DNA from: Hydrolagus affinis
Lineage: Eukaryota
DNA length: 56,055 nucleotides
NCBI GenBank assembly: GCA_012026655.1
Contig: JAAILG010002295.1
Location: forward strand, 1-56,055
Direction: 5' to 3'
In this document: one piece after another, positions 523 through 52,734 of the stretch
How the letters are laid out: each line of letters begins with the position of its first letter
Numbering within the stretch: the first letter of the stretch is position 1
The notes under the pieces: model-generated
What the model was told of the DNA's origin: nothing
Seen by the model: only the letters and a program-made list of their open reading frames with translations
Database searches by the model: none
Program-made: the position numbers and the translations under genes

Positions 523-3500
523 CTTTGAGTCACTCACAGCTGGCTTCAAGCCAGCCATGTTGGCAAAGTACTGAATAACCTTCTTGGTGTTTTCTGTCTT
601 CCCAGCACCGGATTCTCCACTGGGCACGGAGAACAGTAACAGGATTACATTTTGTGGGGAGAAATAGAGTAAGTAAAATGTTTCAATTTAGCCCCAAATT
701 AATTATTTTTATCGGCAATGTTTTGACTATGGAGCTGAAATTCTCTTTTGTTAAATGTTACATTTGCAAAGAGTTACGCAAAATACTGAAGCAATGAACA
801 AATGGAAAAAGTCCAAACATTGGATCAATTAATATTTTTCTGAATGCATATTCAACAAAACACTCAATTAATAAATAAATGGAGAAAACTTAACACAAAT
901 GTTTTTTTTGTGTCATATATCTAGGTACAGTAAATGCTAATTTCGGCGGTGGCTTATTTTTGTATTGTAAACCAATCACACCCTGTAAAAGTTTATACTT
1001 CTGTATTTCGTGATCTGCTTATCAACTTGCATTTAGGAGAGGAAACATATCTGCGAAAAGCTACTTACGTGATGAGCATGGACTGATTTTCACGTTCTGT
1101 GGAAGGAAAAATAGAGTTCAAGATACTTAAGATATCGCGCACTATTTTACAAGCCTCAAAGACCCAGAACTGCCCAACTCTTGAATGACCTGCAGTGTTC
1201 CTCCAGCAGGAATGAACGAAAGAGCTTCAAACATGTGGGAAACACAACCGACTGAAGAGAATTGTAAAATAAATCCTTGGCATTAAAACGACCGCAAATA
1301 ATTTAACTTGATGCGTAGAAAGGAAGAATAATGGGGTATTTAATATCTCTTGTGTTGTTCCTGTGTCTGCATTTCTTATTGTACAGTCAATTCGCTTTAC
1401 AGTACAGAATATATTCTGTGAAGCGCCTTGAGACACGGTCTAGAAGACGCGATAAAGCCGCTAGATCAAATGCCAGGATTATTATTTCTTGCGTCTCCGA
1501 GGTGGAAATCGGACCAAGTAACTTCCTATTGTCTAATATGTTTCTCCCGTTCTATAGCTATGACAGGACTGTGTTGCGCCCAAGTCTCTCTTACCCATCA
1601 ACATGTCGTGGTAGGCGTTGTCAGAGATGGAGAAGAGATGAGGAGGCATCTCACTGCGTTTCTTGCCCTTGTACATCCGAGCCACTCTCGCGCCATAGAT
1701 GGGCAGCCACTTGTAGGGGTTCACTGTCACGCAGAACAACCCAGAGTAGGTCTGCAGAGAGTCAAACCAATAATATATACAGTCTATACTTTCCTCAGAA
1801 CAAACAGTTTTAACATCTTCCGACTGTGTTCATTAGACACCAGACAAATTGGACATCTTTGAAGACTGTCAACTGAGGAAGCGTGACATGGACAGGAATG
1901 GATAATTCTTTTATCTCATCCAACAACTACAACAACACAATTACACTTGTCTAGTGCCGTTCAGGTCAGGAGGATGTCCCAAGTTACTGCTCACAGACCC
2001 GAGCTGAGGACGGTGGGGGTGGGAGGGAAGGGGGGAATTAGGAGTTACCGATGGGTCCATCGCAGAGAAGATTCTTGAGGCGAGACTTGAAGGAGGCCAG
2101 GGAGGGGGGCGAGGTGGAGGGACTGCGGGATGGAGTTCCAGAGATCCTACAACTGGCCTAAAGTTTTGCCCCAAGCCGGGAATCAAAGCGGGTGGTCTCG
2201 CTGGTGCTCTAACCCCACGGGCAGACTTACATAGATTCTCATCTTGAAGTAACGCTGGCGGAGGTTGTCGAGGATGCTGGCCTCATTCAGGAAGGTCAGG
2301 TTGGCCATGTCTGTGGCCTGGTAAAACTTGGGGGGATTCATTTGGTCAACTTCTTCTTTCTTCAGGGTCAAAGTCTGCAAAGAAAAACAAACTTTAAATG
2401 TCTAGAGTTTATCAGTAATTTATTATATTGGCGTACAATAAAACAACACATAATCCAACCAACGGACCAGTTAGATACATGTTAATCTCTGAAATTAGAC
2501 TTGATCTTAGTCCGTTACATCTTAAAACGGTGGAGAATGATGGAAAATTCCTCAATTCGGTCTTTAGTTGGAGGTTGGTTTCCCCCGCAGTCGTTAAAAA
2601 GAAACCGGTTTTCCAATGGAAGGATATTCCACAATTAAGGGCGACCTTTAAATTTTTACGGCCGATGTTACAGGTTAAGATGAAGTGACATTTCAGGCTG
2701 GTATTTAGTGATATCCTGTTCTCTTCACTAGTACAATAAAAGAGCTCCATTCTCTTTACATCAAGATTTACCCATAGGTTATGCAGAAACTAAACCCCTT
2801 GTTTTCAGTTAAGGAGGATTCCTTACTCTTTAATCTAACTAGAATTTTAGACGACATGAAAAGAAATAACAGAATGACTATAATATATATAAAAATAATA
2901 AATCCTTCCATTTGATATAGAGGCTTTTCACATCTTATCAACGTGTCAAAGCTGCTTCACAGAATATACTGTCAAGTGAATAGACTGTATATATTTGTGG
3001 GCGAAACGCGGCAGCCAATTGCACACAGCAGCGTTTCCTCCCCCCCCCCCCCACAAACAGTCGTGGGTTGAAAATGACCAATTTTTATTATTGTGTTTTT
3101 TTGGGGGGGGGAGTGGGGGTGAGGGGCGGATTATCAACCCCTCGATCGCTCTGACCTTTGACAACTGGGATCATTTGCTGCCACTTATGCTCAGAGATTA
3201 GATAGAAACCAACAGGGACGGGTTGCAAAACACAAGGCACAATAATTATTTCTTCAAAAACTTTAAAGTATATATTTTTTGGGGGGGTGGGGGGGTGGTA
3301 GGGACGGGGTGGGGGGGAGGGACGGGACTTACGGTGTTCTTGACAGTCTTCACAACGACTTGGTCACCTTTTTCAGTCTGGATTTCACCTGCAATATAGC
3401 CCTCCTTGTCATCCTTGACCCAACAGGACTTCTTAATGTCGTAGGGTTTGTTGACAGCTTCCAGTTTCTCCTTGTCGGATGGAGCCAGGAAAAGAATGGG

Positions 3501-3536
3501 ATCCACGTCTTCACCACATTCTCCTTTTGTGGCCAT
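523..3536 (-). CDS. MYH16: Myosin heavy chain 16 (superfast/masticatory type), copy A; 5' five coding exons, gene continues beyond the left edge
   Basis: GT-AG exons 3536-3333, 2374-2231, 1751-1595, 1096-1069 and 619-523 splice in frame to [40 protein letters not shown]...[22 protein letters not shown]...[19 protein letters not shown]...[27 protein letters not shown] (P-loop). The N-terminus KGECG.DVDP..FLAP and PPKFYQA are MYH16-type. No lesions in the visible part. Confidence 0.9.
1921..2175 (-). mobile_element. L2-type LINE 3' fragment with (GTT)n tail
   Basis: Similar to 29460-29700. Related short copies at about 4755-4835, 5717-5890, 17945-18040 and 44195-44450. Confidence 0.65.
2890..3100 (-). 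mobile_element. Partial SINE; further partial copies at about 1382-1486(+), 5055-5345(+), 6730-6990(-), 12400-12520(-), 24555-24690(-), 28795-29017(+), 36290-36404(+), 38740-38840(-), 47598-47710(-)
   Basis: Shared core and tail CAGTCAATTCACTTTACAGTATATTCTGTGAAGCGCTTTG...CAAATGCAAGGATTATT. Confidence 0.75.
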
Positions 3537-6604: not shown

Positions 6605-6704
6605 NNNNNNNNNNNNNNNNNNNNNNNNNNNNNNNNNNNNNNNNNNNNNNNNNNNNNNNNNNNNNNNNNNNNNNNNNNNNNNNNNNNNNNNNNNNNNNNN
6701 NNNN
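6605..6704. other. Assembly gap (100 N) flanked by a duplicated 99-bp overlap
   Basis: 6506-6604 is repeated exactly at 6705-6803. Confidence 0.95.
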
Positions 6705-15097: not shown

Positions 15098-18000
15098 ACA
15101 AATTGTGGATTGATCAATTGAGTAATGACTGTGAGAAATTTGAGACTTTCAAGATATTGATCGAACATCGGACTCAATAACAAGGTTGATTATTGTTGGA
15201 ATAGAATTCTATTAAAATCACCTTGAGCTGCTGCTGGAGTTTCTTGAGGGTTTTGACCAGCTCCGCGTTGTTTTTGTTGGCGTGGTCCAGTTGGATCTCC
15301 ATCTCGTTCAGGTCCGATTCCATCTTCTTCTTCAGCCTGAGAGCCTCAGCGCGTCCCTTGGACTCCACCTCCAGGCTGGCCTGCAGGGACTCAATAGCGC
15401 GTTGGTGGTTCTTCCTGCGAGTGTACATTAAGACACCGTGAAATGGAAATGAAATCATTGAGAGGCATTTTACTGAGGTGGCAGATTCTAAAATGTTCAC
15501 TGTTAACCCGGAGAAGGAGAGAGAGCGCGCGAGGTTACACTGTGTACCTGGTGATCTCGAATTCTTCTTCCTTCTCATGGATCCTTCGGTCAACGTCTGC
15601 CTTGACCTGCGCCAACTCCAGCTAAAGACGGACAATCTTACCTTCTTGGACCTGAAGAGATAGAAACCAATCAGGACACAGCAGCCAGTAACGTGGCTCC
15701 CAGTTCTGACCTGGGTTTCTTTTGTTCTCCCCTCTCCGTTTGAACCTTTCACATCACTTATCGTTCTCGAGGTAAAGTGTCACATTGTAGGCACTTGTTG
15801 GATCTCAACAGGATCAATAACACACCCAGGATGCTCCAAAACTGTACCAACATTTGCGAGTAAAAACTTACTGTCAATTATTATTAATGGGGTGGGGGCG
15901 AGCCTCTCAATCAGTCTAAGTCTTTCAATTGACCTGTTCTTCTGTTGCCACACATCATGTTGGGATTGCCTACGTTACCTCCAATGTAGCTTCACTCTCC
16001 TCCAATGCCAACTGCAGTTCCTCCTTCTCAATCTCTAGCTTCTTCTTTATCTTCTGGAGCTCATGGATGCTCTTCCCACCCTCGCCAAGCTGGTCCACCA
16101 GGTCTTTCACCTCATCTGAAGAGACCACAAAAGAGAGGGTGAGTTCACCAGATTACAGCAGTGGGCATGGCACAGACTTGCCCCCAAGTCATCATCAGTC
16201 AGTCACAGATGGATAAGATGATCCATGGAGTAACTCACAAACTTCAGTCCACACTGGATGTGGGTGGGTGTGAGGGGGAAGTTTAACTCGGTGTCCTGAC
16301 CAACATCTGCCATATTTTTTTAAAAAATGTCGCTCACTTCATGGCTGTTTTGTGGGAAGTTTGTAGGCATTTTGCAGGTGTAGGTCACTATACTCCACAT
16401 TAAATTCTGCAAAGCGCTTTGTGAAATCCCTCCGATGTGAAAGGCACTGCATCAAAAACGCAAGGGTTATTACTAATTACCTTGCAGATTTCTGTTCTCC
16501 TTCCTCACACTCTCCAGCTGGTCCGTAACTTCTTCATACACGGTCTTGAGTTTGTAGACCTCAGTCATGTGGATCCTGCATTCCTTCTGTGAGACGTCTA
16601 ACTGAATCTGTAACTCCTCATACTTCTGCTGCCACTCAGCCAGCGTCTTGTCAAAGACTCGCTGCTTCTTGTCCAGGGCAGCGGCTGCAGCGTTGGCCTG
16701 AAGGAGAGGCCGCAGGAAAACAATTACTAAGAAAAAATCAATTAAAACTTACATTTATATAGCGCCTTTCACGTTGAGACGATGTCCCAAGGCGCTGTAC
16801 AGTCAGGTAGGGACAAGAGCAGAGGGGGAGGGGTCGGGGCAGTATGAAGAAGAGTAGGAAAATTGACTGTATATTTGTGGACAAAAGTCTGTCACACATA
16901 TAGATATAAAACAGCAATATAGTCTGAGGATTGTTTCTCCCAGGGCACTGGGAGAATTGACTTTCTGTTTTTGTATTCGTAGCATCTTTAATACGAAATT
17001 TAGAAGATGTCAATTTGTACCTTCTCCAGTTCAATGGTGAGATCCTCCACCTCCCCAGTCAGTCTCTGCTTAGCTTTCTCCAGACTGGAAGCCCTGGCCT
17101 GGGCTGATTCCGATGTCTCTTCAGCCTCCTGTAGCCTAGCTGCCAGCTTCTTCCTACAGACGGCAACAGAGAGAGAGAGAGTTTTGGAATCTGTACACTT
17201 GTCACATCGCAATCTCACTACTGGTATTTATAGTATGTTATATATTAATCTAGTATGTTATATATTAATCAGGCTGTATATTATAGTATGTGAGGCTGAC
17301 ACTCACTTGGTCTCTTCCAGCTCCTCTGTTCTCTGGATGGCATCTGTCTCATACTTGGTCCTCCATGTGGTGACCTCAGCGTTGAGTTTGGAGATCAGGC
17401 GCTGGAACTCAGACTTGGCCTCTTGCTCTTCATCGAGCTGCTCTCTTATCAGGGCCAAGTCATGCTTGGCATTGGCCAGGCTCACCATAGCCACACTCCT
17501 CACCTGCAGCACAACATCGACAGGATCAGTCACGGAAAGGAGTGTTTGCATTGCTCCTTTCACATTGGGAAAGATGTCTCAAGTCGCTGGGTTTCACTAA
17601 CAAACATTATTTAAGTCTTGTACAGTCTACTAGCAATGACATAATGCTTGTGACTTGCCCTCAGGAAACTCTCTGAAGCAGTTGTCATCTCCCTTTTCAG
17701 CCACATAACTCGCTGATCGATGGGTTAGCCACAAAACCTCCCAAAGTAAGGTTTGCTTTGCTGACTTCTGGTTATTAGTGCAAGTCGCAATGGTTACTGG
17801 CAAATGAAGACACAATTCTGTCCACTGACAGACAGACACTGCAGACTCTTCACAATTGAATTTTATCCCCACGAATGTCTTTATTTCCCTGCAGTTTCAA
17901 ACCTGTGAAATTTCCATGAAATCACAGCCGTAGCAACGGTGCTCGGGTCCCGACCTGATCGTCCAGCGCCTTGGGACGTCCTCCCGACGTGAAAGGCGCT

Positions 18001-27128: not shown

Positions 27129-29459
27129 TGAACCCACACCAGCCACAGTTCTGAAAGAATCCTCTCGTCGTCTTCCATTGTACAAATTGTCCACCCCACT
27201 AAACAGAGCGGAAGGTGGGAGCAAGGTACACAACTATTCTTCGTTTAAGAACAAGGGCACTCTTTAATGTTCTCGACCTATCCTAGCAGCCTTTGATTCT
27301 CCCACTCCCTCCAACCATCCCCCACCCCCCCCCCCACCACCACCCACTCCCATTGGCGGAATCAATCAATGACAACTGACGCAGAGAAAGCTTGTTGCTC
27401 TTACCCGGTAGAACGCAGACACGGTCTGGAAGGAAGCTCCTTTCTTCTGTTTTTTGGTGGTACCTGTGGATGAGGAACACACGAGGAATATTTAAAATCA
27501 GGTTTATATACTTCAAGCCGCTACCGGCGACAGATGCCCACGGACGCCACAGAGAGTACGGCCCTGATTCAGATCAATCAATACACGGTGTGACTCACAG
27601 CGTTTTTTTTTTAGGGATTATTATTAGGTGTAATTATTATTTCTCGTGTGCTCTGAGGAAAGGAATACATTGAATAACTCACCTTTGGCTTCTTCTTCTT
27701 TGAAGAGAGTGGCTAATATGTTCATGGAAGACTTCTGGAACAAGCCCACCACTGTTTCGTTCAGGGGATCCTTATTTTTCTCCAGCCACCCTTGGGTGCT
27801 GTACCCAACCTTGAGATGTGAGGAGAATGAAGGTGGAGCATAGATTGAGAATCACAGAGAACATACAACGTGGTTGGAAAACACAATGAACGGAAATATT
27901 TGGTGAAATCCTGATGGATACTCACATTGCCCGCGTAGTGCACCAGCTCAAACGTGGCCTCTGCTCCCTTGCCTTTGCCACCTTTGGGTTTCAGGAAGTT
28001 GTTGGACTTGCCCAGGTGATTGTCGTACAGGGCAGACTTGAACGTGGCGTCCGTGGCCTTCGGGAACACGCACTGCTCCTCCAGGATGGAGAAGATTCCC
28101 ATGGGCTGCAAATACATCGTCAACAAGGACAACAAATGACATCTGTGCAGCGCCTTTCGCGTCAGGAGAACGTCCCAAATACAAATACATCCCCAAACAC
28201 AGACGGTCAAATGCAAGGATTATCCTTGTTATTATTATTATATGAAACAATGTTCCCGGCAGTTTGGTTACAGAAATTGGAGAGCAGCAAACTGACCTTC
28301 TCCAGCAGCTCGATGCAGGCCTGCAGGTCCATGCCAAAGTCAATGAACACCCATTCGATCCCTTCCTTCTTGTACTCCTCCTGTTCCAGGACGAACATGT
28401 GATGGTTGAAGAATTGCTGCAGCTTCTCGTTGGTGAAGTTGATGCAGAGTTGCTCAAAGCTGTTGGACTGTGGGACGGAGGGAAAAGGCAGAGCAGAGAA
28501 TGAGGCTCCCTTTCTACCCAAGATTGCTCTTAATTCGTAACCTTTTTATAGCATATGAGCAGATAGAGAAGACCATGGGGCAAACGCCCACTGAATAAGT
28601 ACATTTCCCCTCTTCTCTCTTAAATATGCCATTCGATTTTGCCTCTACAGCCTTTACTGTCCAATCTTAAAATTTTAAGTCAAAAGAAGGTCCGGCCTTG
28701 TGAATGCAACCCAATGTTTTTAATGTGCTATTTTAAAATATTTAATGTTAAAATATTTATATATACACCACACTGGAGTGGATAGTCCGTCCAAAAAAAC
28801 AACACAATAATAAAAAAAATTGGTCATTTTCAATCCACGACTGTTTGTGGGGTGGTGGGGGGACACACTGCTGTGCGCAATTGGCTGCCGAGTTTCGCTC
28901 GCTCGCCAAAGTCAATTCACTTTACAGTATACTCTGTGAAGCGCTTTGAGATGTCGATAAGATGTGAAAAGCCGTTATATCAAATGCAAGGATTATTATT
29001 ATTATTATTATTATTATAGCAGACGGAGTCGGAAGCAAGATTCCAAAGAAATTGCACCAAGCGAGAGGCACTGTTGTAAACTGTATGTTAACTGGGAGAT
29101 TTCTATCAAAACTGCCAAAGGATTAGCTGCCAAAACGTGCATTGTGAAATCCTGTGTCACAGTGGGGAAGATCAGTGCCAACGTCTCCATTACCTGAGCA
29201 TAGCATCAAGCATTACTGTTGACACGGGGCTGCCAGTAAACCTTTACCTCAAAGATTTCAAAGCCGGCAATGTCCAGCACGCCTATAAAGTGCTGACGCT
29301 GCATCTTAGTGTCCAAGGTCTTGTTAATTCTTACAACCATCCACTTGAACATTTTATCGTAGACGGCTTTTCCTAGGGCACCAACTGAGTTGGAGCACTG
29401 AGAAAGAGAGAGAGTAATAACAAGATTATTACCAGCAGTGAATAGAATTCCAACCACAG

Positions 29460-29862
29460 TAAAATGACACTTGTGTAGACAGCGCCTTTCACGTCTGGAG
29501 GACGTCCCAAGATGCTGGACGTCCTTGTTTCAGACCCGAGCTGGGATCGGGGACAGAGAGGGTGGAGGGAAAGGTGGGGGATTTGGGGTGACCGATAGGA
29601 CCATCAAAGAGGAGGGTCTCGAGATGCGACTTGATGGAGGTTGGTGAGGGGGCGAGGTGGAGGGACTGTGGGATGGAGTTCCGGAGTTGGGGACAGAGTG
29701 GCTGAAAGTGGGATGGTTGGTTGGGAAATGTGGAGCAGGCCGGAGAGGAGGGCAGGTCACTGAGCAGAGGGAGCGGGCAGGTCGGTAGAGGGTTAGGACA
29801 TGGCAGAAGTAGGGTGGGGCGAGGCCATGGAGGGCTTTGAATGTGAGACCAAGAGTGCCCAA
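29460..29862 (-). mobile_element. L2-type LINE 3' fragment
   Basis: Peptide LTFKALHGLAPPY...YRPARSL is typical of the L2 ORF2 C-terminus. The 3' end GGGACGTCCTCC..ACGTGAAAGGCGCT is shared with many short copies. Confidence 0.75.
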
Positions 29863-31869
29863 AAGTAATATTTGTCTATCCAGCGTGTCCAGGCCAGTGA
29901 CTGCTCTGTGGGAGGGGGACGTTCTTTTGAGAAATTGGTGAAAGACTCACCTGGGCCACATTCTGGGCTTTCTGCACAAACTCGTTACCAACTTTGACCC
30001 TTCTGGAGCTCCCCCGAACTGAGAGCCATCAAGTGGGAGACTTTGTCGGCCACTGGAAACGAGCAGACAAGGAAACCAACTGAGAAAAGGCAGGAGATGA
30101 ATGTCTTTGCAGATCCAGTTGCTATTTACAAAGGCAGGATTCAGCCTCTTGGAATATACTCATGGAGTACGTTGGATTTCCTTTGAAGAGGAAATAGACA
30201 ATTGAATGGGAACCAACAAGTTGGGGAGGGAGGGTGAGAGATATCAAAACAGGATTGAAATGCTGTTCCTTAAATCAGGATCTAGAGTGTATGAGTTTAG
30301 TTGGCCCATCTCATATATATTTACGTTAAATCTCAGAGTCAACAACTAAACATATCAGTCTCTGAGCAAGGCTAAAGCACTTGTTGTGGCCGTACAACTG
30401 ATTCCCAGCGGAACATGATGCGGGAATCCATCAGCCCCCTTGTAATCTGTTTTGTCAACACCCGAGACAAATTCCCCAATACTCCCAGGTTTGGAGCAGG
30501 TTGGGTTACAATGTGTGAGTAGACAGCATGGCATTCAGCCTGTATTCTAGTGCGGGGCAAATGGTTAGGCCACAGAACTGATTGATTTATTGATCGATCG
30601 ATCAGTCGATCGATTGACTGACTTCAAGTGAGTCATTCGAATCGCTTGCTGCTATTTGGCTGCATTAGTAAGAGTGTAAGTGACCGACCTTCTGTAGTTT
30701 CGATGTCGGCCTGCTCATCCCTGGACTTCTGCTTAAACTTCATGTTCCCGAAATGCATGATGGCTCCGGTCAGCTTGTAGACACCGTATTTCTCCTCAGT
30801 GGTGAAGCCCAGCACATCAAAGGCTTCCTTTGGAACAAAGATTTAATTTATTCCACGCTTTTAATGGACTATTTAAATAAAAGTATCGTTTCATTTCCCA
30901 TCAGAAATGTTATGTGAAAATGGAGGCAAAATAATGTGAGATTTTTCCCATTGGGCAATAATAAAGCCACTGTCAAACATTTCACATCTGTTTGGCTTGT
31001 CTGTTGAACCACTGGGAGACTAGGGGACCCACAAAATTGTCTTATCTCCAGAGATTGCTTGCGTTTGGATAAAATGTTCCAATTTAAATCTTCCGCCGTT
31101 GTCAATTTAAGTCTTTGAATCAGTATTTCCCAATGTAACCATGAAAACACAGTCAACCAGGAGTGACACTGATCTCACATCGCCAATGTTGGCCTCACTT
31201 TGCAACCCAGACTGTGACGCACGCACGCACGCACACTCTATGTGTGTGGAAGTGTAAGACTGAGAGACGTACATCAGTCAATCGGAGCTCTTCACCATCA
31301 TCCATGTTGTCCACCACAGTCACACCCTGGCACACCCAACAGTACTGTTTCGGATCAGGCATCAACAGCAGCATATCTGGCAAGAGACGGGAAAGTGAAT
31401 AATTCAGAAACAAAGGTAAGAAGCCTTCCGAGAGTCACGCGATTCACAGTGAATAGTGACTCACCGATACCATCAGATTTTTTTTTGCTTGAAATTGGCT
31501 CAAAGACTGTAATGTTGAGACTCACCTAAAATGTTTGGTATATTCCCAGAGAGGAGCTGGTAGAAGATGTGGTAGCCTCGCTCAGCATGTTGCTGTGAGA
31601 TGACTCGAGACTTTTCTAACAAATCTGGAAACAGGAGGACCCGAAATGTAGGAGAGGGAGAAACAACAGGTTGAGAGAGACCCAAGGAATATCAAATATA
31701 CTGTACATCATAAAATATAATTGCACGTTCAATGTTTTCAATAACACGAGTTGTAACAAAGTGAAAGATTTGCTTACAGCTTTCAATATCAGCACCAGCT
31801 AGTTTACCAGATGGGCCAAAGTGAATTCGGATAAATTTACCCTGGAGAGAATTGAGGGTGGGAGGAGAA

Positions 31870-33032: not shown

Positions 33033-36000
33033 TTACACAGTTCTTGTCTTACCTTTGTGTCGGTGACCTGTTTTCCAGTGCCACCGATGTTTGCAAAGTA
33101 CTGAATGACTTTCTTGGTGTTCTCAGTCTTGCCTGCACCAGATTCTCCACTGTAAGGAAGAGAAACGTTATTTTAATTCAGGCGTGGGGGAAACTGAATA
33201 AATCCTTCAAATGTCAGCTCCAGTTTTTTAGAACCGGTTCTAGGGAACACACCAGAAATTACATCCGGAGCAGAAAAAGCCTGACCGATCCCTGAAACTG
33301 CTCTCTGCGCAGTGCGGTCTCTGAACTAATAAGCAGAAAACAGTTTTGCACACATCACTCAAGGATCGGAAACAACGTGGATCGCATGAAACAAACAAAA
33401 CTGACTCACGTGATGAGCATGGACTGATTCTCTCGCTCTGTGGAGGAAATGGAAGAGTTTTAGAAACTTGACACACAGTAAACGGTGTAGAGAGGCTTAA
33501 CAATTTTTTTTCAAATTGGTATCCCTCCAAAACAAAACATTCAGGTCCAATCTTAATCCCGTCACTGAATGCTGCCTTTAACTTTGGGAAGGCAGATGAG
33601 CTGTGGCTCTCAGCTTCCCTGCTCATAGCCATTAATTGTTCCCCCTACCCCCCCACCCTTCCATACCCCACCCCACCCCAGTTGGATGGAAATGTGATTC
33701 AAACAGCACAATTATGATATTATGCTTGTTTCTCTCCCTGGAATGGAAAAAGAAACATTCCAGTCAATGCCCTGGTCATTATCAGGGCCTGAATAAAACC
33801 CAAAAGGGCAGCTGCGTTGATCATTTATCTCACTGCCCTTACATGTCTATTCAGACGCGTGTTAGCTAAATCCTGCTCTTGCCTACATTACACAATGACT
33901 TCACTCTCAAGATGTAACTCATTTGGGAATTTTGTCACGGAGGGCTCTATACCAACACAAGTATTTTGGTTTTTTAAAAAAAGCCATAAATTAGAGATGT
34001 CAGGAGCTAATTTACTGCTCCAAACACAGAGACATCTGGGCTTATGTGCAAATAGGAAATATTATCACAATCCGGTCAGCACAATGTTTATCCAACAAGA
34101 TGACGTGATGCCATAACACACAGATGACATTAACACTTGGGATGTTATTTAGTCAATTCCACCCTCTTAATAAGTACTTGAACTTTATAGTGGTTCCCTG
34201 ACACGTACCCTCTGTGTGACACACAAACCATCTTGCTCAGCGCCCAAGTCTCTCTTACCCATCAACATGTCGTGGTAGGCGTTGTCAGAGATGGAGAAGA
34301 GATGAGGAGGCATCTCACTACGTTTCTTGCCCTTGTACATCCGAGCCACTCTCCCACCATAGATGGGCAGCCACTTGTAGGGGTTCACTGTCACGCAGAA
34401 CAACCCAGAGTAGGTCTGTTTAAAAATAAAGATTCACTGTACCATCACCATTTTAATTGATCCTTAAAAATATAGACGTTCACAGCAACAATGGGGGGGC
34501 GTTTCCTAAAAACCGAAGTATGAATCTTGTATCACATTTAACGTAAAACCATTTGCAATAGTCAAATAAAAATAATAATGGTTATTGTTGGTTCAGCGGT
34601 TACTGTAATAATATGTTGCCATTATGATTCTTGTCATGATTAAGTGACTGGTTTCCCTACTGGTTGAAGAATAAGAACAACTTGCATTTATATTGGGCTT
34701 TTTCAAGTAGAATAATGCCTCAGAACACTTCACAGTGTCAGGGATGGATCCTGAGTTAGAGGGGAAGAGATGGGGGGATGGATGAGGTGACCATAATCAC
34801 CCTTGAAGAGGTAGGTTTTGAGGCAGGAATTGAAGACAATTAGAGAGCGGGTTGGGCCACAGGGAACGAAGGAGGGAATTCCCGAGGTTAGGAATCCTAT
34901 TGAGAGAAAAAATCAATTTTGCACGACTTATGCTTGAGAGATAATTTGAACGTACGTAAATTCGCATCATCATATAACGCTGGCGTAGGTTGTCCAGGAC
35001 ACTGGCCTCATTCAGGAAGGTGAGGTTGGCCATGTCGTTGGCCTGGTAAAATTTGGGTGGGTTCATCTGCTGGAGATCGTCTTTCTTTATGGTCAAGGTC
35101 TGAAAACAAATATAAAAGCAACGACGATTTGCAATGGTAAGGGATCCATGGGGAGAAAGTACAACCCAACACCTACAGTTCTTCACACAGAAATTATAGG
35201 CATTGGGCCTATTAAGGCTATACTGGTGCTATGTACTTGAAAACATAGTCCACTGGAGCGATATATCCTAATCAACTTCCCTTTGATTAGTTTGTCTCTT
35301 TATCAAATCTTTATCCAATATCAGTTGTCAGAGTCTTAGCTTTGATAGATACTTAGGGCAAAGCACCCAACCAACACCCCAACTCCCCCCCACCCACCCA
35401 CAAACACACACACATATCCACACACACTTTCGGAGAAGTGGTGATATTGTTTACTTACAGTGTTCTTGACAGTCTTGATAGTGAGTTCGTTTCCACTGTC
35501 AGACTGGACTTCACCTTCGATGAAACCATCTTTGGCATCAACGACCCAGCAGGACTTTTTAATGTCATACGGTTTGGTCATGGCTTCTCGCTTCTCCTTC
35601 TCAGAAGGAGCTAGAAATATCATGGGGTCAACATCATCCCCGCACTCGCCCTTGTAACGTGCGGCCATTCTGAACTTGGTTTACGGGCAGCAGATGAGAT
35701 CGAAGAGGACAAAGAGAGAGAGAGCACTCACTGGAAGGCTGCAAAGAAAAGCAGATCTTATTTACACACAGAAAAGAAAGTTCACCATATTCCTGCGACA
35801 GAAACCGTCGGATTGAACTATTGTGGTATGTCATGGTATTTCTAAATCCCTCATGGTCTTATGTTTGAGGCCAATAAACTTTAGATTGTGTGGAAATTTT
35901 GAGAATTCTTAAATTCAGCCTTAACTTGGAAGTCGTTTCTTTCTAAATGAAGAAAACCAGCATCCAAATTAAAGTGAGAGTTTAAGACTTTTCTATAACA

Positions 36001-43459: not shown

Positions 43460-43559
43460 NNNNNNNNNNNNNNNNNNNNNNNNNNNNNNNNNNNNNNNNN
43501 NNNNNNNNNNNNNNNNNNNNNNNNNNNNNNNNNNNNNNNNNNNNNNNNNNNNNNNNNNN
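43460..43559. other. Assembly gap (100 N)
   Basis: Run of N. Confidence 0.98.
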
Positions 43560-45477: not shown

Positions 45478-48400
45478 ATGTCAATCCGTGAAGCTGAGAA
45501 TGCAAGGATGAAAACATTCAAGAATAAGGGGAGAGATTTTACGGTAATGCTCCCTATTTCCTTGTTATGTTGGACACCTTGATATCAAAGTGATCTATAA
45601 TGAATGGAGATTGCTGATTTGGTGGGTGGGAGGTTTCAAATCTGTGTTGTGCCAATTTGAGTTGCTACAAGCTCCAAAGTAAGGTTTCAGCAAAAAGAAA
45701 CCCGCAATAAATTTCCTATTGCAAAAGCCCTCTACCCAGGCCAGCTAATGAGCCTATCAGTTTCTCAATCATTTTGTTGTTGGGATAAATTGAATGCAGC
45801 TGCGATTGACTCAATGCCCCTTGTATTAAGGGACATTTGAATTAAAGGGAGAGCTACAGAATCCAAACTAGTCTGTACCCTTAATTCAATTATCTGACTA
45901 CAGTACTTTGCGTCTGGGAACAGTGTAGAGTTGGGTGATTCGATTGAAGATGATATAGAAGATGAGTACCTCTGGAGTACCCAGCTCCAAGACTCCCTTC
46001 GCATTTTAAGTGCAGGAATGATGGAGTTGCTGGGAATCCAGATTCCTGTCACATGTGGACGGTGGTGTCTGTTCTCTGGACCAATTGAACAATCTTGGCA
46101 GAGGGTCTCTGAGTTTCCACTGAACTGAAACTTGACTGGATTCTAAATTGTTTTTTTAAATATATGTATATATATATATGGTGTATTGACTCGAAAAAAA
46201 AGTTTTAAAATTGCACCTTTAGAATTGCAATAAAGCGCTTTCCATCTCTCCCAAACCAGCTTTTTTTAAAAAAAAATCACTGAATTCAGCAGATGGGTTA
46301 ATCTAAATATTCTGTCTATTCAGTAGCTTGGAAGGATGAAAAGTTTTATTCCCTGTACAGTCATATTTGTTCGGAAAAGAATCCATCCCACTGTTTTATT
46401 TTGCTAGAAAAGAGAAAGGTCATTTTTTAATCCACAACTGTTTGTGGGACACAGCGCTGTACGCAATTAGCTGCCGCGTTTCGCCCACAAATATACAATC
46501 AGTTCACTTTACAGTATATTCTGTGAAACGCTTTGAGACACAGTCTAGAAGACATGAAAAGCGCTATATCAAATGCAAGGATTATTATTATTAAACTAGG
46601 AGCTGAGGAGGCGGAGAATCGAGGTCAATGTTGAGCTACGAAAAGCCAAGAAGGATGAGCAGATTCTGAAGAGGAGAAATGTGGGCACTTTGCCAGAGGA
46701 TGACAAGACACCAGAAATTATTGTAAGAAAATTTGTATCTATAAAACAGAATGCAATCAAATTCCAGGCCAAAGAGCAATATAACTGTACAAATCCTTTG
46801 AGTGTTTTATTTTGGAAAGTGTGTGTGGGACTTGCAGTACATAGTAAAGTTGTGTAACTGCTCTGGTCCTCGGCCAATGTGAGTGATGGTTGTCCTGATA
46901 GTATGTTTAGCAATTCTTTGTAGAATTTCCTGTTGAATAGGTGTGTCCTAAACATAGGTTGCAACCGACATGACGCTGCAAATTTGTCCATCAATCAATC
47001 TAGAGAAAGATTAAGTGTTGAGTAATTTTCCCACCAGTTGGTGGTGCTGGTCACTACCTTCTGCATGCTTTTCACTGCCACACAAATCATGTCTTTTAAA
47101 CTGCTCTAACATAGTTCCATTTTCAAAGACTCAACTTTTTTTTCTCCCCTACAAAAGAGTGGGTTAAAAAAGAATGCGCGTGTTTGTCATGTTTCACATC
47201 ATGTAAAACGTACCCATTCGTTGGAAGCCATTCTGCGTGTCGTATCTGCTGACTGAAAACCATTTGCTTTCAATCATTTTTTTCATACCTAATAGCGCGA
47301 AAAATGCTACTAGAATGTTTGTAAGCCGAATTCTAACCCCTTGTTCCTAATGTGTAGGTCCGTGAGATGACTGTCACAGAGATTGTGGCTGGGATGAACA
47401 GCCCTGAACAACAGTTGCAACTGCAAGCGACACAGGGTGCAAGGTACTATACCATACCTTATCCAGTGTGTCCGGCTTGCAGATTCCCCTTCCATGATTT
47501 TTCCTCAGATATTTTTCGATATCTTTTATTCAAATACAGATGTGCAAATTTATATCCAGGACAATGCACTTCAGACAGTACTTCAGTAGTAAGTGATCAT
47601 AATAATAATCCTTGCATTTGATGTAGCACTTTTCACATCTTCTGGACGTCTCAAAGCGCTTCACAGAATATGTTATAAGTTGAATCGACTGTATATTTGT
47701 GGATGAAATCTTCAATGCAGTAAGCATGCCTAACTGCTCAATAGACTTGATTTCTGCTTAAGGATGAGTTAAAATTGTAGCTTCATCAGAATCCTAGGAT
47801 ATCTGATCTCTTCTGGGAACCACACAACCAAATATTTTCATTTCCTTTGGTTGGACTGCAAATAGGCTAACGGGAGAGGGACTAAAAGGGTAGTGCACTT
47901 TCACTGTCACTAAACTTTTTTGTGGGGGGGAACCCTTGTAAATATGAAAGGTTCCATGATATACTTTATAAAGATAAGAGAGTTTCACTCAGTTTCCTGG
48001 CTAAAGATTGTCTAGATAAATGGATCATTCACCTAATGGTTCCTGTTTACCTATTAATACTCACAACGCCTCACAATCATTTGTGAAACAATTTGATGAA
48101 GTAGGTTCTATTATCAAATATAAAGATTATATCTCCAATTGCAGCAAAGTTTAATGTTTATTTTTCTCGGTAGAAAACTTCTGTCCCGAGCCTGGAAACC
48201 TCCTCTGAATGAGATCATTAAAGCAGGACTAATCAAGAAGTTTGTTGAATTCCTTGGTCGAGATGATATCCCTGTTCTGCAGTTTGAGTCTGCCTGGGCA
48301 CTGACTAATATCGCATCAGGCACGTCAGAGCAGACCAAGTCAGTCGTGGATGGAGGTGCTATCCCAGCCTTAGTGTCTCTGCTTTCATCTCCACATATGC

Positions 48401-51400
48401 ACATCAGTGAGCAGGCTGTGTGGGCCTTGGGCAACATTGCAGGTAGATTACTGGATTCCTAACGAGATGCATTGTGATCAAGATTTGCTCTCACACTTTA
48501 ACTCAGATGAAAAGTGGGTAATGGTTATCGAAACCAAAAGGAAAATAATATTTCTTTTTTTTTCCCCTCTAGGCGATGGTCCCCTCTTTCGTGATGCATT
48601 GATAAATTGCAATGTTATCCAGCCTCTGCTTGCATTGGTACAGCCTAGTACCCCAGTAAGTGGATGTGGTTGCCAGGCTCGGACCCGGTCATGAATCTAA
48701 TTCAGAGTGCTCTCGTTTTGAATGTTAGAAAAAGTGACAAAACTTAATGACCAGAATGAGAAAACTGAACAAGATGAAGAATCATCAATGTAGAATGCCC
48801 TATATTCCTAGTACAGAATGCAACTTTAAACATGAAACCTGAGTTTACCTGATGTGACTCACATTAATTTGAAAATCTCATGGAACCCCTCTGAATGCAG
48901 AAATAATTGTTTTTTTGGGGGGTGGGTCTATATTGCCACTTATCACAAACCAATTCCATGTTCATTGTATTTGTGCTGTAATGTTGGTGCAGGTTTGGCA
49001 ACATAATTGAAGATATCCTCAAGCTTGGCCTGGCACTAGTTCAGTGTAAGGTTTGTGGATGATGCCTGCTGCCTATGGCTTCCATATGGAAAATCCTCAC
49101 TTGGGTAACGTACTCAAAGGATGCTTATGTCTGCACCTCTTAGCATCTTAGCTCAGCACCTGCGGGTTGGGAGGGCTTAAACTAAACAGTAACTACTCTA
49201 CCTGAACTGAACAGGTGACGCTTGGTTTCTTGAATTGCAGGTTGGTATATTGAGCAATATTACGTGGACTCTGTCAAACTTGTGTCGCAACAAGAATCCT
49301 CACCCTTCACTCAAGGCAGTTCAGCAGATGCTCCCTACACTTGTTCAGCTGCTTTACAATGATGATCCAGATATCCTCTCTGACGCTTGCTGGGCGCTAT
49401 CCTACTTGACCGATGGCCCCAATGAACGGATTGAGGTTGTAGTGAACACTGGTATTTTGCCCAGACTGGTGCATTTAATGGCTACCTCTCAGCTGAATGT
49501 ATTGGTAAGATTGATGCTGTAATTCATATGTTTGAGCTTGCTGCACAAGGAGCAGGAAGGATGGGATGATGAAGTAAAGGGAGTCACTGGAAAGTGCTCC
49601 CTCAGTTGGGAGGGGTGTGGGGCGGGTAGTAAAGAGAAAGGTGGATTTTAAAGTAATAAATCCTTGCATTTCATGTAGCAACTTGGGAGGATGCCTCAAA
49701 GTGCTTTGCCAGATTATACTGTGATCACGTATTTTGTGCCCAGCAACATTCTACAAACAACATGGAGTCAAATAAAATGGGGGACCATGAGAATAATTAG
49801 AAAATGTGATCAAGACCATATTAATTTTGTACGCTGAAGTTTTCCAGTCCTGTACATAATTCTAAACCTTCAGTTTAGAGAATCCTCATTAGCAGGCGTT
49901 TCTATCTGCTAACAGAAAAAAGTCCTGACTGACACATGTCTTCATTTTAGACTCCTGCCCTCCGTGCTGTGGGAAACATTGTGACTGGAACTGACAATCA
50001 AACAGAGGCTGCCCTTAAGGCTGGTGTTCTGTCTGTACTGCCCAAGGTATTGAAGCATTCCAAGTCCAGTATACAGAAGGAAGCTGCTTGGACCATCTCT
50101 AATATTGCGGCTGGGCCGACTAACCAGATTCAACAATTGATTACTTGTGGAGTGATGCCTCATCTTGTTGATCTAATGGAGCAAGTATGTACAGTGCTGC
50201 ACAATCCAACTGGATGCTCTGCATTGTTATACCTTTTCTCTCTCTCCCACTTCCTCTTCCCTCGTGTAAAGAATGTTTTAACAAGTTCGTGGTTGCCTTT
50301 TATACAACTACCTTCTTTCTTTCACTCCCCCTCCCCTACGCAATCGTCCTGACTCATAAAGGAAGCAATTCCTTCCTGAAATTGTGAATCACTTATTTTC
50401 AAATCATTAATTGAGACCTTTTTCTTCAATTACCTTATTCCTCCTCTTTCCCCACCCCCTCCCCCATGCCACCACCAAATTCATTATCTAGAATCTGGAT
50501 GAATGTACATGTATTTGCATTTATCTCTCTGTCCAATTGTGAATCCACATCTCAGCAAAGTTGAATGTAACTTCCTCCCAGTCCTACAGGGAGAATAGTC
50601 TGGTTTTGCATAACAGGATGCTTGGATAGCTCCAGGAAGTATTCCCTGATTCTACTGTGAGTAACCAGGAAACACCAGTGTTTAACATAGACCTGCTTGA
50701 GCAGTGAAGAGGGATTTTTTTTGCATAAGCCACAAAGGGTGACCCAGATGGCCAGGAAAAGACTAATGACTCAGAATTAAAATAAACTTGGGTTACAGCT
50801 TTTTGTGGGACAAAATGTTTAATGGCAAATTATCTATCAGTTGGTTTTTAGTCTTGACAGTGCTTGTGCAGCAGTGGAATCTGCCTCTGTAACTACACCA
50901 GCAAATTGCATGCAGTAGCAGGGGAAGACGGTTGAATTGGTCAGAGTGCAGTCTTTGTGCCAAAACCTAATTTTACCAAAGTTACTTCAGTTCTGACAAA
51001 GAGTCGTGGACCCGAAACGTTGACTCACTTTCCTTTCTCCATAGATGATTCCTGACCTGCTGAAAGTTCCCAGCGACTTGTTTTTGTTTTCAGACTTCCA
51101 GTATCTGCAGTATACTGTGTTTTGTAACTCATTTTACCTTTTGGACCTCGTGTTAAAAACAAATTTTCTTTGCCTTGCAGGGTGACTTTAAAGCAAAGAA
51201 AGAAGCTATTTGGGCTGTGACTAACTACTCGAGCGGTGGCACAGTGGACCAGATAGTCCATTTGGTACGCTGTGGGGTGCTGAAGCCCCTACTTGACTTG
51301 CTCTCTATCAAAGATGCTAAGATTATTCTGGTGGTCTTGGATGCCTTTTCCAACATCTTCCTGGTGAGTTGACAGAGGTTTAGGGTTGAACCAGTCAGAT

Positions 51401-52734
51401 TGCACCAACCAGACTCTGTGAGCTTGGTGAAGTTTTTTTTCCAGCAACTTAGCATTGTGAAAATGCTATGGTTAATGATGTACTTGTTGGTTATTTTGTT
51501 ATGTATTTTTCTGTATAGGCTGCAGAGAAGCTTGGTGAGACAGACAAACTATGTCTAATGATAGAAGGACTTAATGGGTTGGAAAAAATTGAAGCTCTTC
51601 AGTCCCATGAAAATGATGCTGTATACAGAACTGCGCTAAATCTCATTGAAAAATACTTTGTTGAAGCGGTAAGCCGAGAACACTAACTTTGGCAAATACT
51701 ATTGAAGGATTATGTTGCAATTCCTTCCTTGTAATTTTTTTCCCTCTTAACTTACAAAAACTAGGATTAGTTCCCAGTTTTTGGTAGGCAGTCTGCAGAG
51801 AAGGCAATATGTGGTCTGATAGTTTCAATAATCCTTCACATTCATCCACCAGGAATAAGTTGGGACTGCTTCTGTCAGTCTGTATAAATCAAAAATGCAA
51901 TGGCTCCAGTATAGGGGCTTGGAAACTAAATTCAAATGTCTATTATAGGTTCTGTTGCAAAACCTACTGAGCTATTACAAGGAAAATCAATGCGAGTTGC
52001 TGCCTGACTTGCAAAAAGTAATGGAAAATTGGATTTTTATAATGTTTTGTGTTGAACATCAGTGCTTCACAGACAATTACTGTGAAGTGTAGTAATAGTT
52101 TGTTAGCCAAATTTAAAGGCTGTTTCCTCCAAGTATCCCACAAACAGCCATGAAGTGACTGACTAATCTTAGTTTGAAGGTTTGCTGGCCAGGATTTCCG
52201 AGACTGCTTTGTCTTTCAAACAGTCTAAAATCCCCTAGAACATCATATCAGGCTATGATGCAAATACAGTATTTATTCCAATAGGTAGTACATGAAACTA
52301 CCAATGTAGCTTTTCAGGACTTTATGTTGGATTTTCCTGACTAAGTATGCTTCAATCTTAATTATCCACCATAATAGAATAGCCATATTGAAAAATATTA
52401 ATCAATAAACTTGCATTGCAGAAGTTTAAACTATTAGATTGAAGGTAGCTACTTACCTTTCAGAGAAAAATGGTAGTTGTTAGGGCTTGCCCATAGATTC
52501 TAATGTACTGTACATACTTTATTGCTTCCCTGACTTTTCATGGGGGTTAGCGAGCAGGTGAGAATGGATGACTGATGATCCACCTGAACTCAATCCAAAA
52601 CATTGCAGCAAAACTAAGAATGCCTGTCATTCCTCCCTTTATAGGACGAAGATGTTATAAACATTCAGACTGAAACAACAAACGAAGAATTTATATTCCC
52701 GATGAATTCTCAGCAAGATGAGTTTAACTTCTGA
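45478..52734 (+). CDS. KPNA7: Karyopherin alpha 7 (importin alpha-8; KPNA2/alpha-1 subfamily), 515 aa, intact
   Basis: Exons 45478-45543, 46600-46722, 47358-47443, 48174-48442, 48573-48655, 49241-49504, 49951-50184, 51181-51363, 51519-51668 and 52645-52734 total 1548 nt in frame. IBB domain (FKNKG...[26 protein letters not shown]) and ARM repeats ([46 protein letters not shown]). Its position between MYH16 and SMURF1 favours KPNA7 over KPNA2. Confidence 0.88.
46415..46592 (+). mobile_element. 5'-truncated SINE abutting a KPNA7 splice acceptor
   Basis: Core plus tail GCGCTATATCAAATGCAAGGATTATTATTATT, ending 7 nt before the exon start at 46600. Confidence 0.85.
50988..51112 (+). mobile_element. 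Penelope-like repeat remnant with a degenerate minimal hammerhead motif
   Basis: CTGACAA-AGAGTC-GTG-GACCC-GAAAC-GTT, followed by CTCCATAGATG..CCTGACCTGCTGA..TTCCCAGC. Confidence 0.45.

Follow-up and report, generated by a model that had tools for sequence, protein, structure and literature searches.

Gene content and identity of the locus

The analysed window is a whole contig of 56,055 nt (JAAILG010002295.1; G000:C2295) from the 1.11-Gb Hydrolagus affinis assembly GCA_012026655.1, which consists of 245,464 contigs. It carries two sarcomeric myosin heavy chain genes in tandem, both on the minus strand, with copy A lying 8.5 kb downstream of copy B. Copy B (12077–35668) was modelled in 43 coding exons, with GT-AG ends at 42 of 42 introns, and is 93.6% identical to its Callorhinchus milii ortholog, XP_042197192.1. 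Copy A is represented in the window by exons 1–5 (523–3536, minus strand) and continues with exons 7–43 on another contig (G000:C10967, 23276–2200, minus strand), with no stop or frameshift in either part and 94.1% identity to the C. milii ortholog XP_007904316.1. Exon 6 is missing from the ends of both contigs and falls between them, so that the gene is open across the 42 of 43 exons assembled.

The assignment of copy B to MYH16 in the preliminary description is borne out both by the named protein matches, which are led by myosin-16 and myosin-16-like proteins, and by the segment encoded by exon 11, which is of a MYH16 type common to 35 reference proteins. With MYH16 of coelacanth and dog, copy B shares 80% identity; the genome's remaining sarcomeric myosins match exon 11 at 60% or less. 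The 43 coding exons lie in the expected range of 42–43, and 42 exons are predicted for human MYH16 in the accessible part of PMC6402096. Three segments that initially looked incomplete in tblastn comparisons of copy B, namely a gap at residues 824–827 and the missing segments 803–830 and 1237–1276, proved on inspection to be ordinary exons and were discarded as lesions.

An importin-alpha gene of the alpha-1 type (KPNA2–KPNA7) lies at about 46600–51600 on the plus strand, head to head with copy B, and its inspected exons are open. We take this neighbour to be KPNA7, which presumably also adjoins MYH16 in human. The window further contains two 100-N scaffold gaps (6605–6704 and 43460–43559), the first of which is bordered by a duplicated repeat segment and is likely an assembly overlap.

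A 17-nt deletion in exon 11 of copy B

Coding exon 11 of copy B (30052–29951, minus strand) has canonical AG/GT ends and is 102 nt long, and it is entered in phase 1 and left in phase 0. In copy A (G000:C10967:20851-20733) the corresponding exon measures 119 nt, as it does in two further sarcomeric myosin genes of the genome, and pairwise alignment of the copy B and copy A exons gave a single gap of 17 nt. The reading of this exon in the preliminary description, with its length, its phases and the loss of 17 nt relative to a 119-nt sarcomeric exon, was confirmed when ends and phases were rechecked, and all coordinates given there proved correct. The comparison of orthologous exons that it proposed agrees as well, since copy A has the full 119 nt and both C. 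milii proteins read through the site.

The deletion can slide over a 5-nt AAGGG motif (30002–29998, minus strand), the one copy left of a direct repeat found on either side of the 17 nt in copy A. A short direct repeat is hence present at both breakpoints with one copy kept, and homology of at least 5 nt was found in only 0.3% of random 17-nt deletions placed in the copy A coding sequence. The proposed microhomology therefore stands, though the repeat is AAGGG, one base longer than the AGGG named earlier. The deletion also falls in a 45-nt stretch in which copies A and B do not differ at all; A/B-identical runs of at least 31 nt make up 14% of the coding sequence.

Splicing of the 43 exons as assembled places the frameshift at about codon 398 and leads to a premature TAA at 29987–29985 (minus strand) with a product of 400 aa, exactly as previously described. 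The lost residues map to positions 399–404 of MYH7 and include Arg403 (ungapped match of residues 4–43 to 381–420), a position that we take to be that of the cardiomyopathy loop. The segment is near-invariant across the 35 reference MYH16 proteins.

A second lesion in the rod domain

Reading the frame of exon 11 through as N exposed a second stop in copy B, an in-frame TAG at codon 1556 (15624–15622, minus strand) in exon 37 (15651–15548), which encodes part of the rod domain. This codon specifies Gln in copy A, in both C. milii proteins and in 32 of 33 bony-vertebrate proteins. The TAG, which is absent from the preliminary description, strengthens the case for inactivation of copy B. Within the same assembly, no lesion was present in 14,004 coding nt of control sequence comprising copy A and two other sarcomeric myosins: copy A is free of stops and frameshifts over 5,730 assembled coding nt, and in the two other myosin genes neither a stop (over 1,482 and 1,276 aligned core residues) nor a frame break along the exon series was seen. 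The chance of both lesions landing in B is 0.087, calculated over about 19.8 kb of coding sequence with what is a small control. The occurrence of both lesions in B and none in the control is suggestive of a real null rather than chance, short of proof.

Duplication history and probable exchange between the copies

C. milii carries both MYH16 genes at full length (1946 and 1940 aa), and neither lesion is present in them. The pair is located on one 16.8-Mb contig under consecutive accessions (myosin-16-like, XP_042197192.1/XP_007904317.1; myosin-16, XP_007904316.1). A FastTree phylogeny of 37 proteins, rooted at the midpoint and containing no non-MYH16 outgroup, grouped copy A with C. milii myosin-16 and copy B with C. 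milii myosin-16-like, with support of 1.0, and placed the four holocephalan proteins in one group apart from those of bony vertebrates. The protein identity between A and B is 81%, and 225 sites sort by ortholog as opposed to 6 by species. Judged from these protein sequences, the tandem duplication is shown to predate the split from Callorhinchus. Seventeen short protein matches and the protein P0004 were set aside, as they are closer to bony-vertebrate or other myosins than to copy B.

At the DNA level, exons 3, 13, 14, 18 and 38 are 96–98% identical between A and B, while most others range from 62 to 90%. The high identity of these five exons has the pattern of exon-scale gene conversion, which would be the mechanism behind it; no paper on gene conversion in the MYH16 pair was found in the literature searched. 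Some intron flanks of the two copies are also alike, for example 34240–34418 and 1576–1754, at 98%.

The protein searches yielded no chimaera ortholog beyond C. milii, and no shark or ray protein was found among the 72 matches of one search or among the 120 listed of 324 in another. Expression of masticatory myosin in shark, where it is reported from jaw muscle, is described in the accessible portion of PMC11050549. Two MYH16-like proteins are also present in gar, in Scleropages/Arapaima and in Megalops, and they do not group with the chimaera copies, which suggests that MYH16 may have been duplicated repeatedly and independently in fishes.

The deletion site in other sequenced samples

Fifteen public runs were screened, 13 of which contain part of 29000–31500; none of these 13 contains half of the words of this region or is on record as RNA. 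Four of them (X1, X5, X7 and X9) were compared with the window over 29690–30370 as assembled contigs, a stretch that ends well before the TAG at 15624. Exon 11 is not covered by X7, and none of the three covering runs carries the deletion.

In X1, the 17 nt are inserted behind 29997 with the same letters as in copy A, on a contig of depth 3.85. The upstream intron and the 5' part of the exon are B-type in this contig, none of the letters at 30019, 30048 or 30056 being A-type, whereas the 3' part of the exon is A-type; its nine other differing letters correspond to eight A/B differences and one intron change. The mosaic is probably a chimeric contig assembled through the shared stretch, though it does connect B-specific bases with the 17 nt. 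A fusion of B and A into one gene in X1 was also considered and set aside, since a contig chimera formed at low coverage across the 45-nt node would be simpler. The X1 contig also lacks one base at 30042 in the same exon, a gap that could reflect an error or another null allele. In intron sequence, one X1 contig has the same letter as the window at 224 of 224 positions and another at 109 of 110, and an X7 contig agrees at 143 of 143; X1 and X7 therefore likely derive from the same or a very close species.

The two remaining samples are more distant, with 9 of 551 letters differing in X5 (organism A, approximately 1.6%) and 6 of 403 in X9 (organism B, approximately 1.5%). Their B-type contigs end at the deletion junction, with 18 and 24 loose letters in X5 and 9 in X9. 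These are the lengths predicted if the 17 nt are present and the 45-nt node is common to A (18, 24 and 9), on the assumption of 31-mer contigs and as a match of lengths only, the letters of the loose ends not being displayed. In these two samples, word depth over 29943–30057 is roughly double in B-type contigs compared with A-type or presumed A-type ones (41–43 versus 17.5 in X5; 78 versus 40 in X9). An extra B copy in the two organisms is possible, although word depth here is no copy number.

Constraint on copy B and age of the probable loss

Relative to their C. milii orthologs, copy B has 125 differing residues and copy A 112, a similar degree of divergence. Of the derived changes in B, 10 of 49 fall at the 913 conserved columns, compared to 1 of 30 in its C. 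milii ortholog (Fisher P 0.044) and 5 of 48 in A (B versus A, P 0.26). Nine of the ten B changes are conservative (BLOSUM62 of at least 0), as opposed to about 55% expected under neutrality (P about 0.02–0.03), and copy B was therefore apparently under purifying selection until recently. The protein sequence shows no sign of a long neutral decay, as far as the nature of its substitutions can indicate. A rough target-size model with an assumed indel rate would place two loss-of-function hits after approximately 0.3% neutral divergence; some 2.3 radical changes would then be expected, and 1 was observed. The model thus fits a loss that would postdate the divergence from organisms A and B and be comparable in age to variation within a species.

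Interpretation of the lesions

The best explanation, to which we assign a probability of roughly 60%, is that copy B in this assembly is a real and very young null allele of a duplicated, partly redundant MYH16 paralog. As close relatives do not have the frameshift, this is likely a very recent loss of a spare copy, unless it is an assembly error. The AAGGG repeats may have given rise to the deletion, either through replication slippage or through microhomology-mediated end joining. Transcripts with a premature stop upstream of exon junctions are subject to nonsense-mediated decay by an established rule, and with 32 exon junctions downstream of its stop the copy B transcript would be degraded in this way. 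Any 400-aa product that was made would be devoid of the actin-binding cleft, the converter, the lever arm and the rod, and would not form a working motor. Copy A would likely cover the masticatory myosin function, enabling the null allele to drift at little cost, and the allele would be confined to the individual or population that was assembled, or to a very recently split lineage. The redundancy of B with A is assumed in this scheme, and the identity of only 81% between them argues for roles that may have been distinct for a long time.

The finding that no covering run has the deletion, the near-identical X1 included, is also what an assembly or consensus error predicts. According to this explanation, which we regard as unlikely, the 17 nt were dropped when contigs were joined over the 45-nt A/B stretch on a 5-nt overlap, and copy B is intact. 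The assembly is fragmented, and the deletion lies inside an A/B-identical node, a place where assemblers stumble. Copy B moreover displays no further decay, with all introns canonical and conservative substitutions. On the other hand, numerous further stretches of the gene in which A and B are identical were assembled complete, the gene contains no N gap and none lies closer than 13 kb to the site, and a search of the assembly for a second haplotig in which exon 11 or exon 37 of B is intact found none. The TAG would have to be an unrelated base error or a heterozygous position, and two independent errors would thus be needed in one 5.8-kb coding sequence when none occurred in 14 kb of control coding sequence.

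Closest to the preliminary description is a pseudogene fixed at the species level, with B having died on the terminal branch and X1 coming from a sister species that keeps it. The two ORF-disrupting lesions in the assembled sequence and the excess of conserved-column changes over C. milii are in line with this. Chimaeras evolve slowly, and the near-identity of X1 is therefore no proof of conspecificity. However, X1 differs at only 1 of 334 intron letters and yet retains the 17 nt, and the excess does not reach significance when copy A is the reference and consists mostly of conservative changes. With the deletion in none of the three covering runs (four compared), one of them near-identical to the window, the deletion was not found to be common to other individuals or species, and fixation in any species is therefore not supported; we consider this reading unlikely. 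We judge it less probable again that an ancient holocephalan duplicate, retained ever since the lineage separated from Callorhinchus, is now being lost, with several independent null alleles segregating in one species and exon-scale gene conversion with its twin continuing. The segregating alleles would then be the 17-nt deletion and the nonsense codon described here and the 1-nt frameshift in the X1 exon, a combination that we likewise find quite improbable. If it were true, the population would offer a natural experiment in which MYH16 dosage could be related to jaw muscle in a cartilaginous fish that feeds on hard prey.

Least probable by far is that both lesions exist but are circumvented by cryptic splice sites, such that copy B still makes a shortened myosin. 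An AG at 30020–30019 could serve as a cryptic acceptor and yield a predicted in-frame exon of 68 nt (30018–29951, minus strand), 17 residues short, and the TAG at 15624–15622 itself ends in AG after a pyrimidine run and would, as an acceptor, drop 30 nt in frame. Both rescues are nevertheless required together, since the cryptic acceptor at 30018 alone leaves the second stop in place. The first would remove 17 residues and scramble five just before the MYH7 Arg403 equivalent, in a near-invariant segment, and the second would be expected to break the heptad register. An alternative donor at 30041 was discarded as a rescue: it would preserve the frame at the cost of 36 residues. Skipping of exon 11 alone cannot restore the frame, given the change from phase 1 to phase 0, as had been pointed out previously. 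A recent null allele of copy B remains the reading that we favour.

Comparison with human and mammalian MYH16 losses

The open-access literature was searched, and neither a report of a chimaera MYH16 duplication or pseudogene nor one of MYH16 inactivation outside mammals was found; the accessible portions of PMC6558913 and 10.1101/495713 contain nothing on the MYH16 locus. If real, the copy B lesions would represent a MYH16 inactivation outside mammals at a very early stage, from which it could be tested whether the chimaera paralogs duplicate each other's function or have become specialised. Among the closest known systems is that of C. milii, in which myosin-16-like and myosin-16 are one-to-one orthologs of B and A and are intact at both lesion sites.

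The human MYH16 pseudogene resembles copy B in gene family, in its frameshifting deletion in the motor domain and in the resulting premature stop. The human lesion is a 2-nt deletion at codon 660 in exon 18, according to the accessible part of PMC6402096. The region corresponding to codon 660 is contained in exon 17 of copy B (27045–26958, minus strand; residues 648–677), which at 88 nt has the same length as in copy A and is intact. The preliminary description was thus right that this exon is undamaged and that the copy B deletion, at about codon 398, lies elsewhere than the human one. The parallel that it drew with the human pseudogene was not supported, as an intact paralog is located directly downstream and the deletion is missing from all covering runs. 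Human MYH16 is single-copy and its lesion species-wide, whereas copy B has an open paralog alongside and its lesion occurs in one assembly only. With copy A open over 42 of 43 exons, copy B is not a unitary pseudogene of the human type; masticatory myosin is therefore likely retained, and because this second copy remains, the case has no bearing on the human jaw-brain argument.

Losses of MYH16 are recorded for pangolins, anteaters, armadillos, three-fingered sloths and echidna in the portion of PMC12906968 available, and a deletion of the gene in mouse and further mammalian losses in that of PMC6402096. As the copy B lesions would be, these are independent inactivations of masticatory myosin, which is a recurrent known event. 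The mammalian losses described in the accessible part of PMC12906968 are old, with many shared lesions (up to 47), and are tied to reduced chewing. Copy B, in contrast, carries two lesions, lies in a duplicate, and has a deletion that is seen in none of the covering runs.
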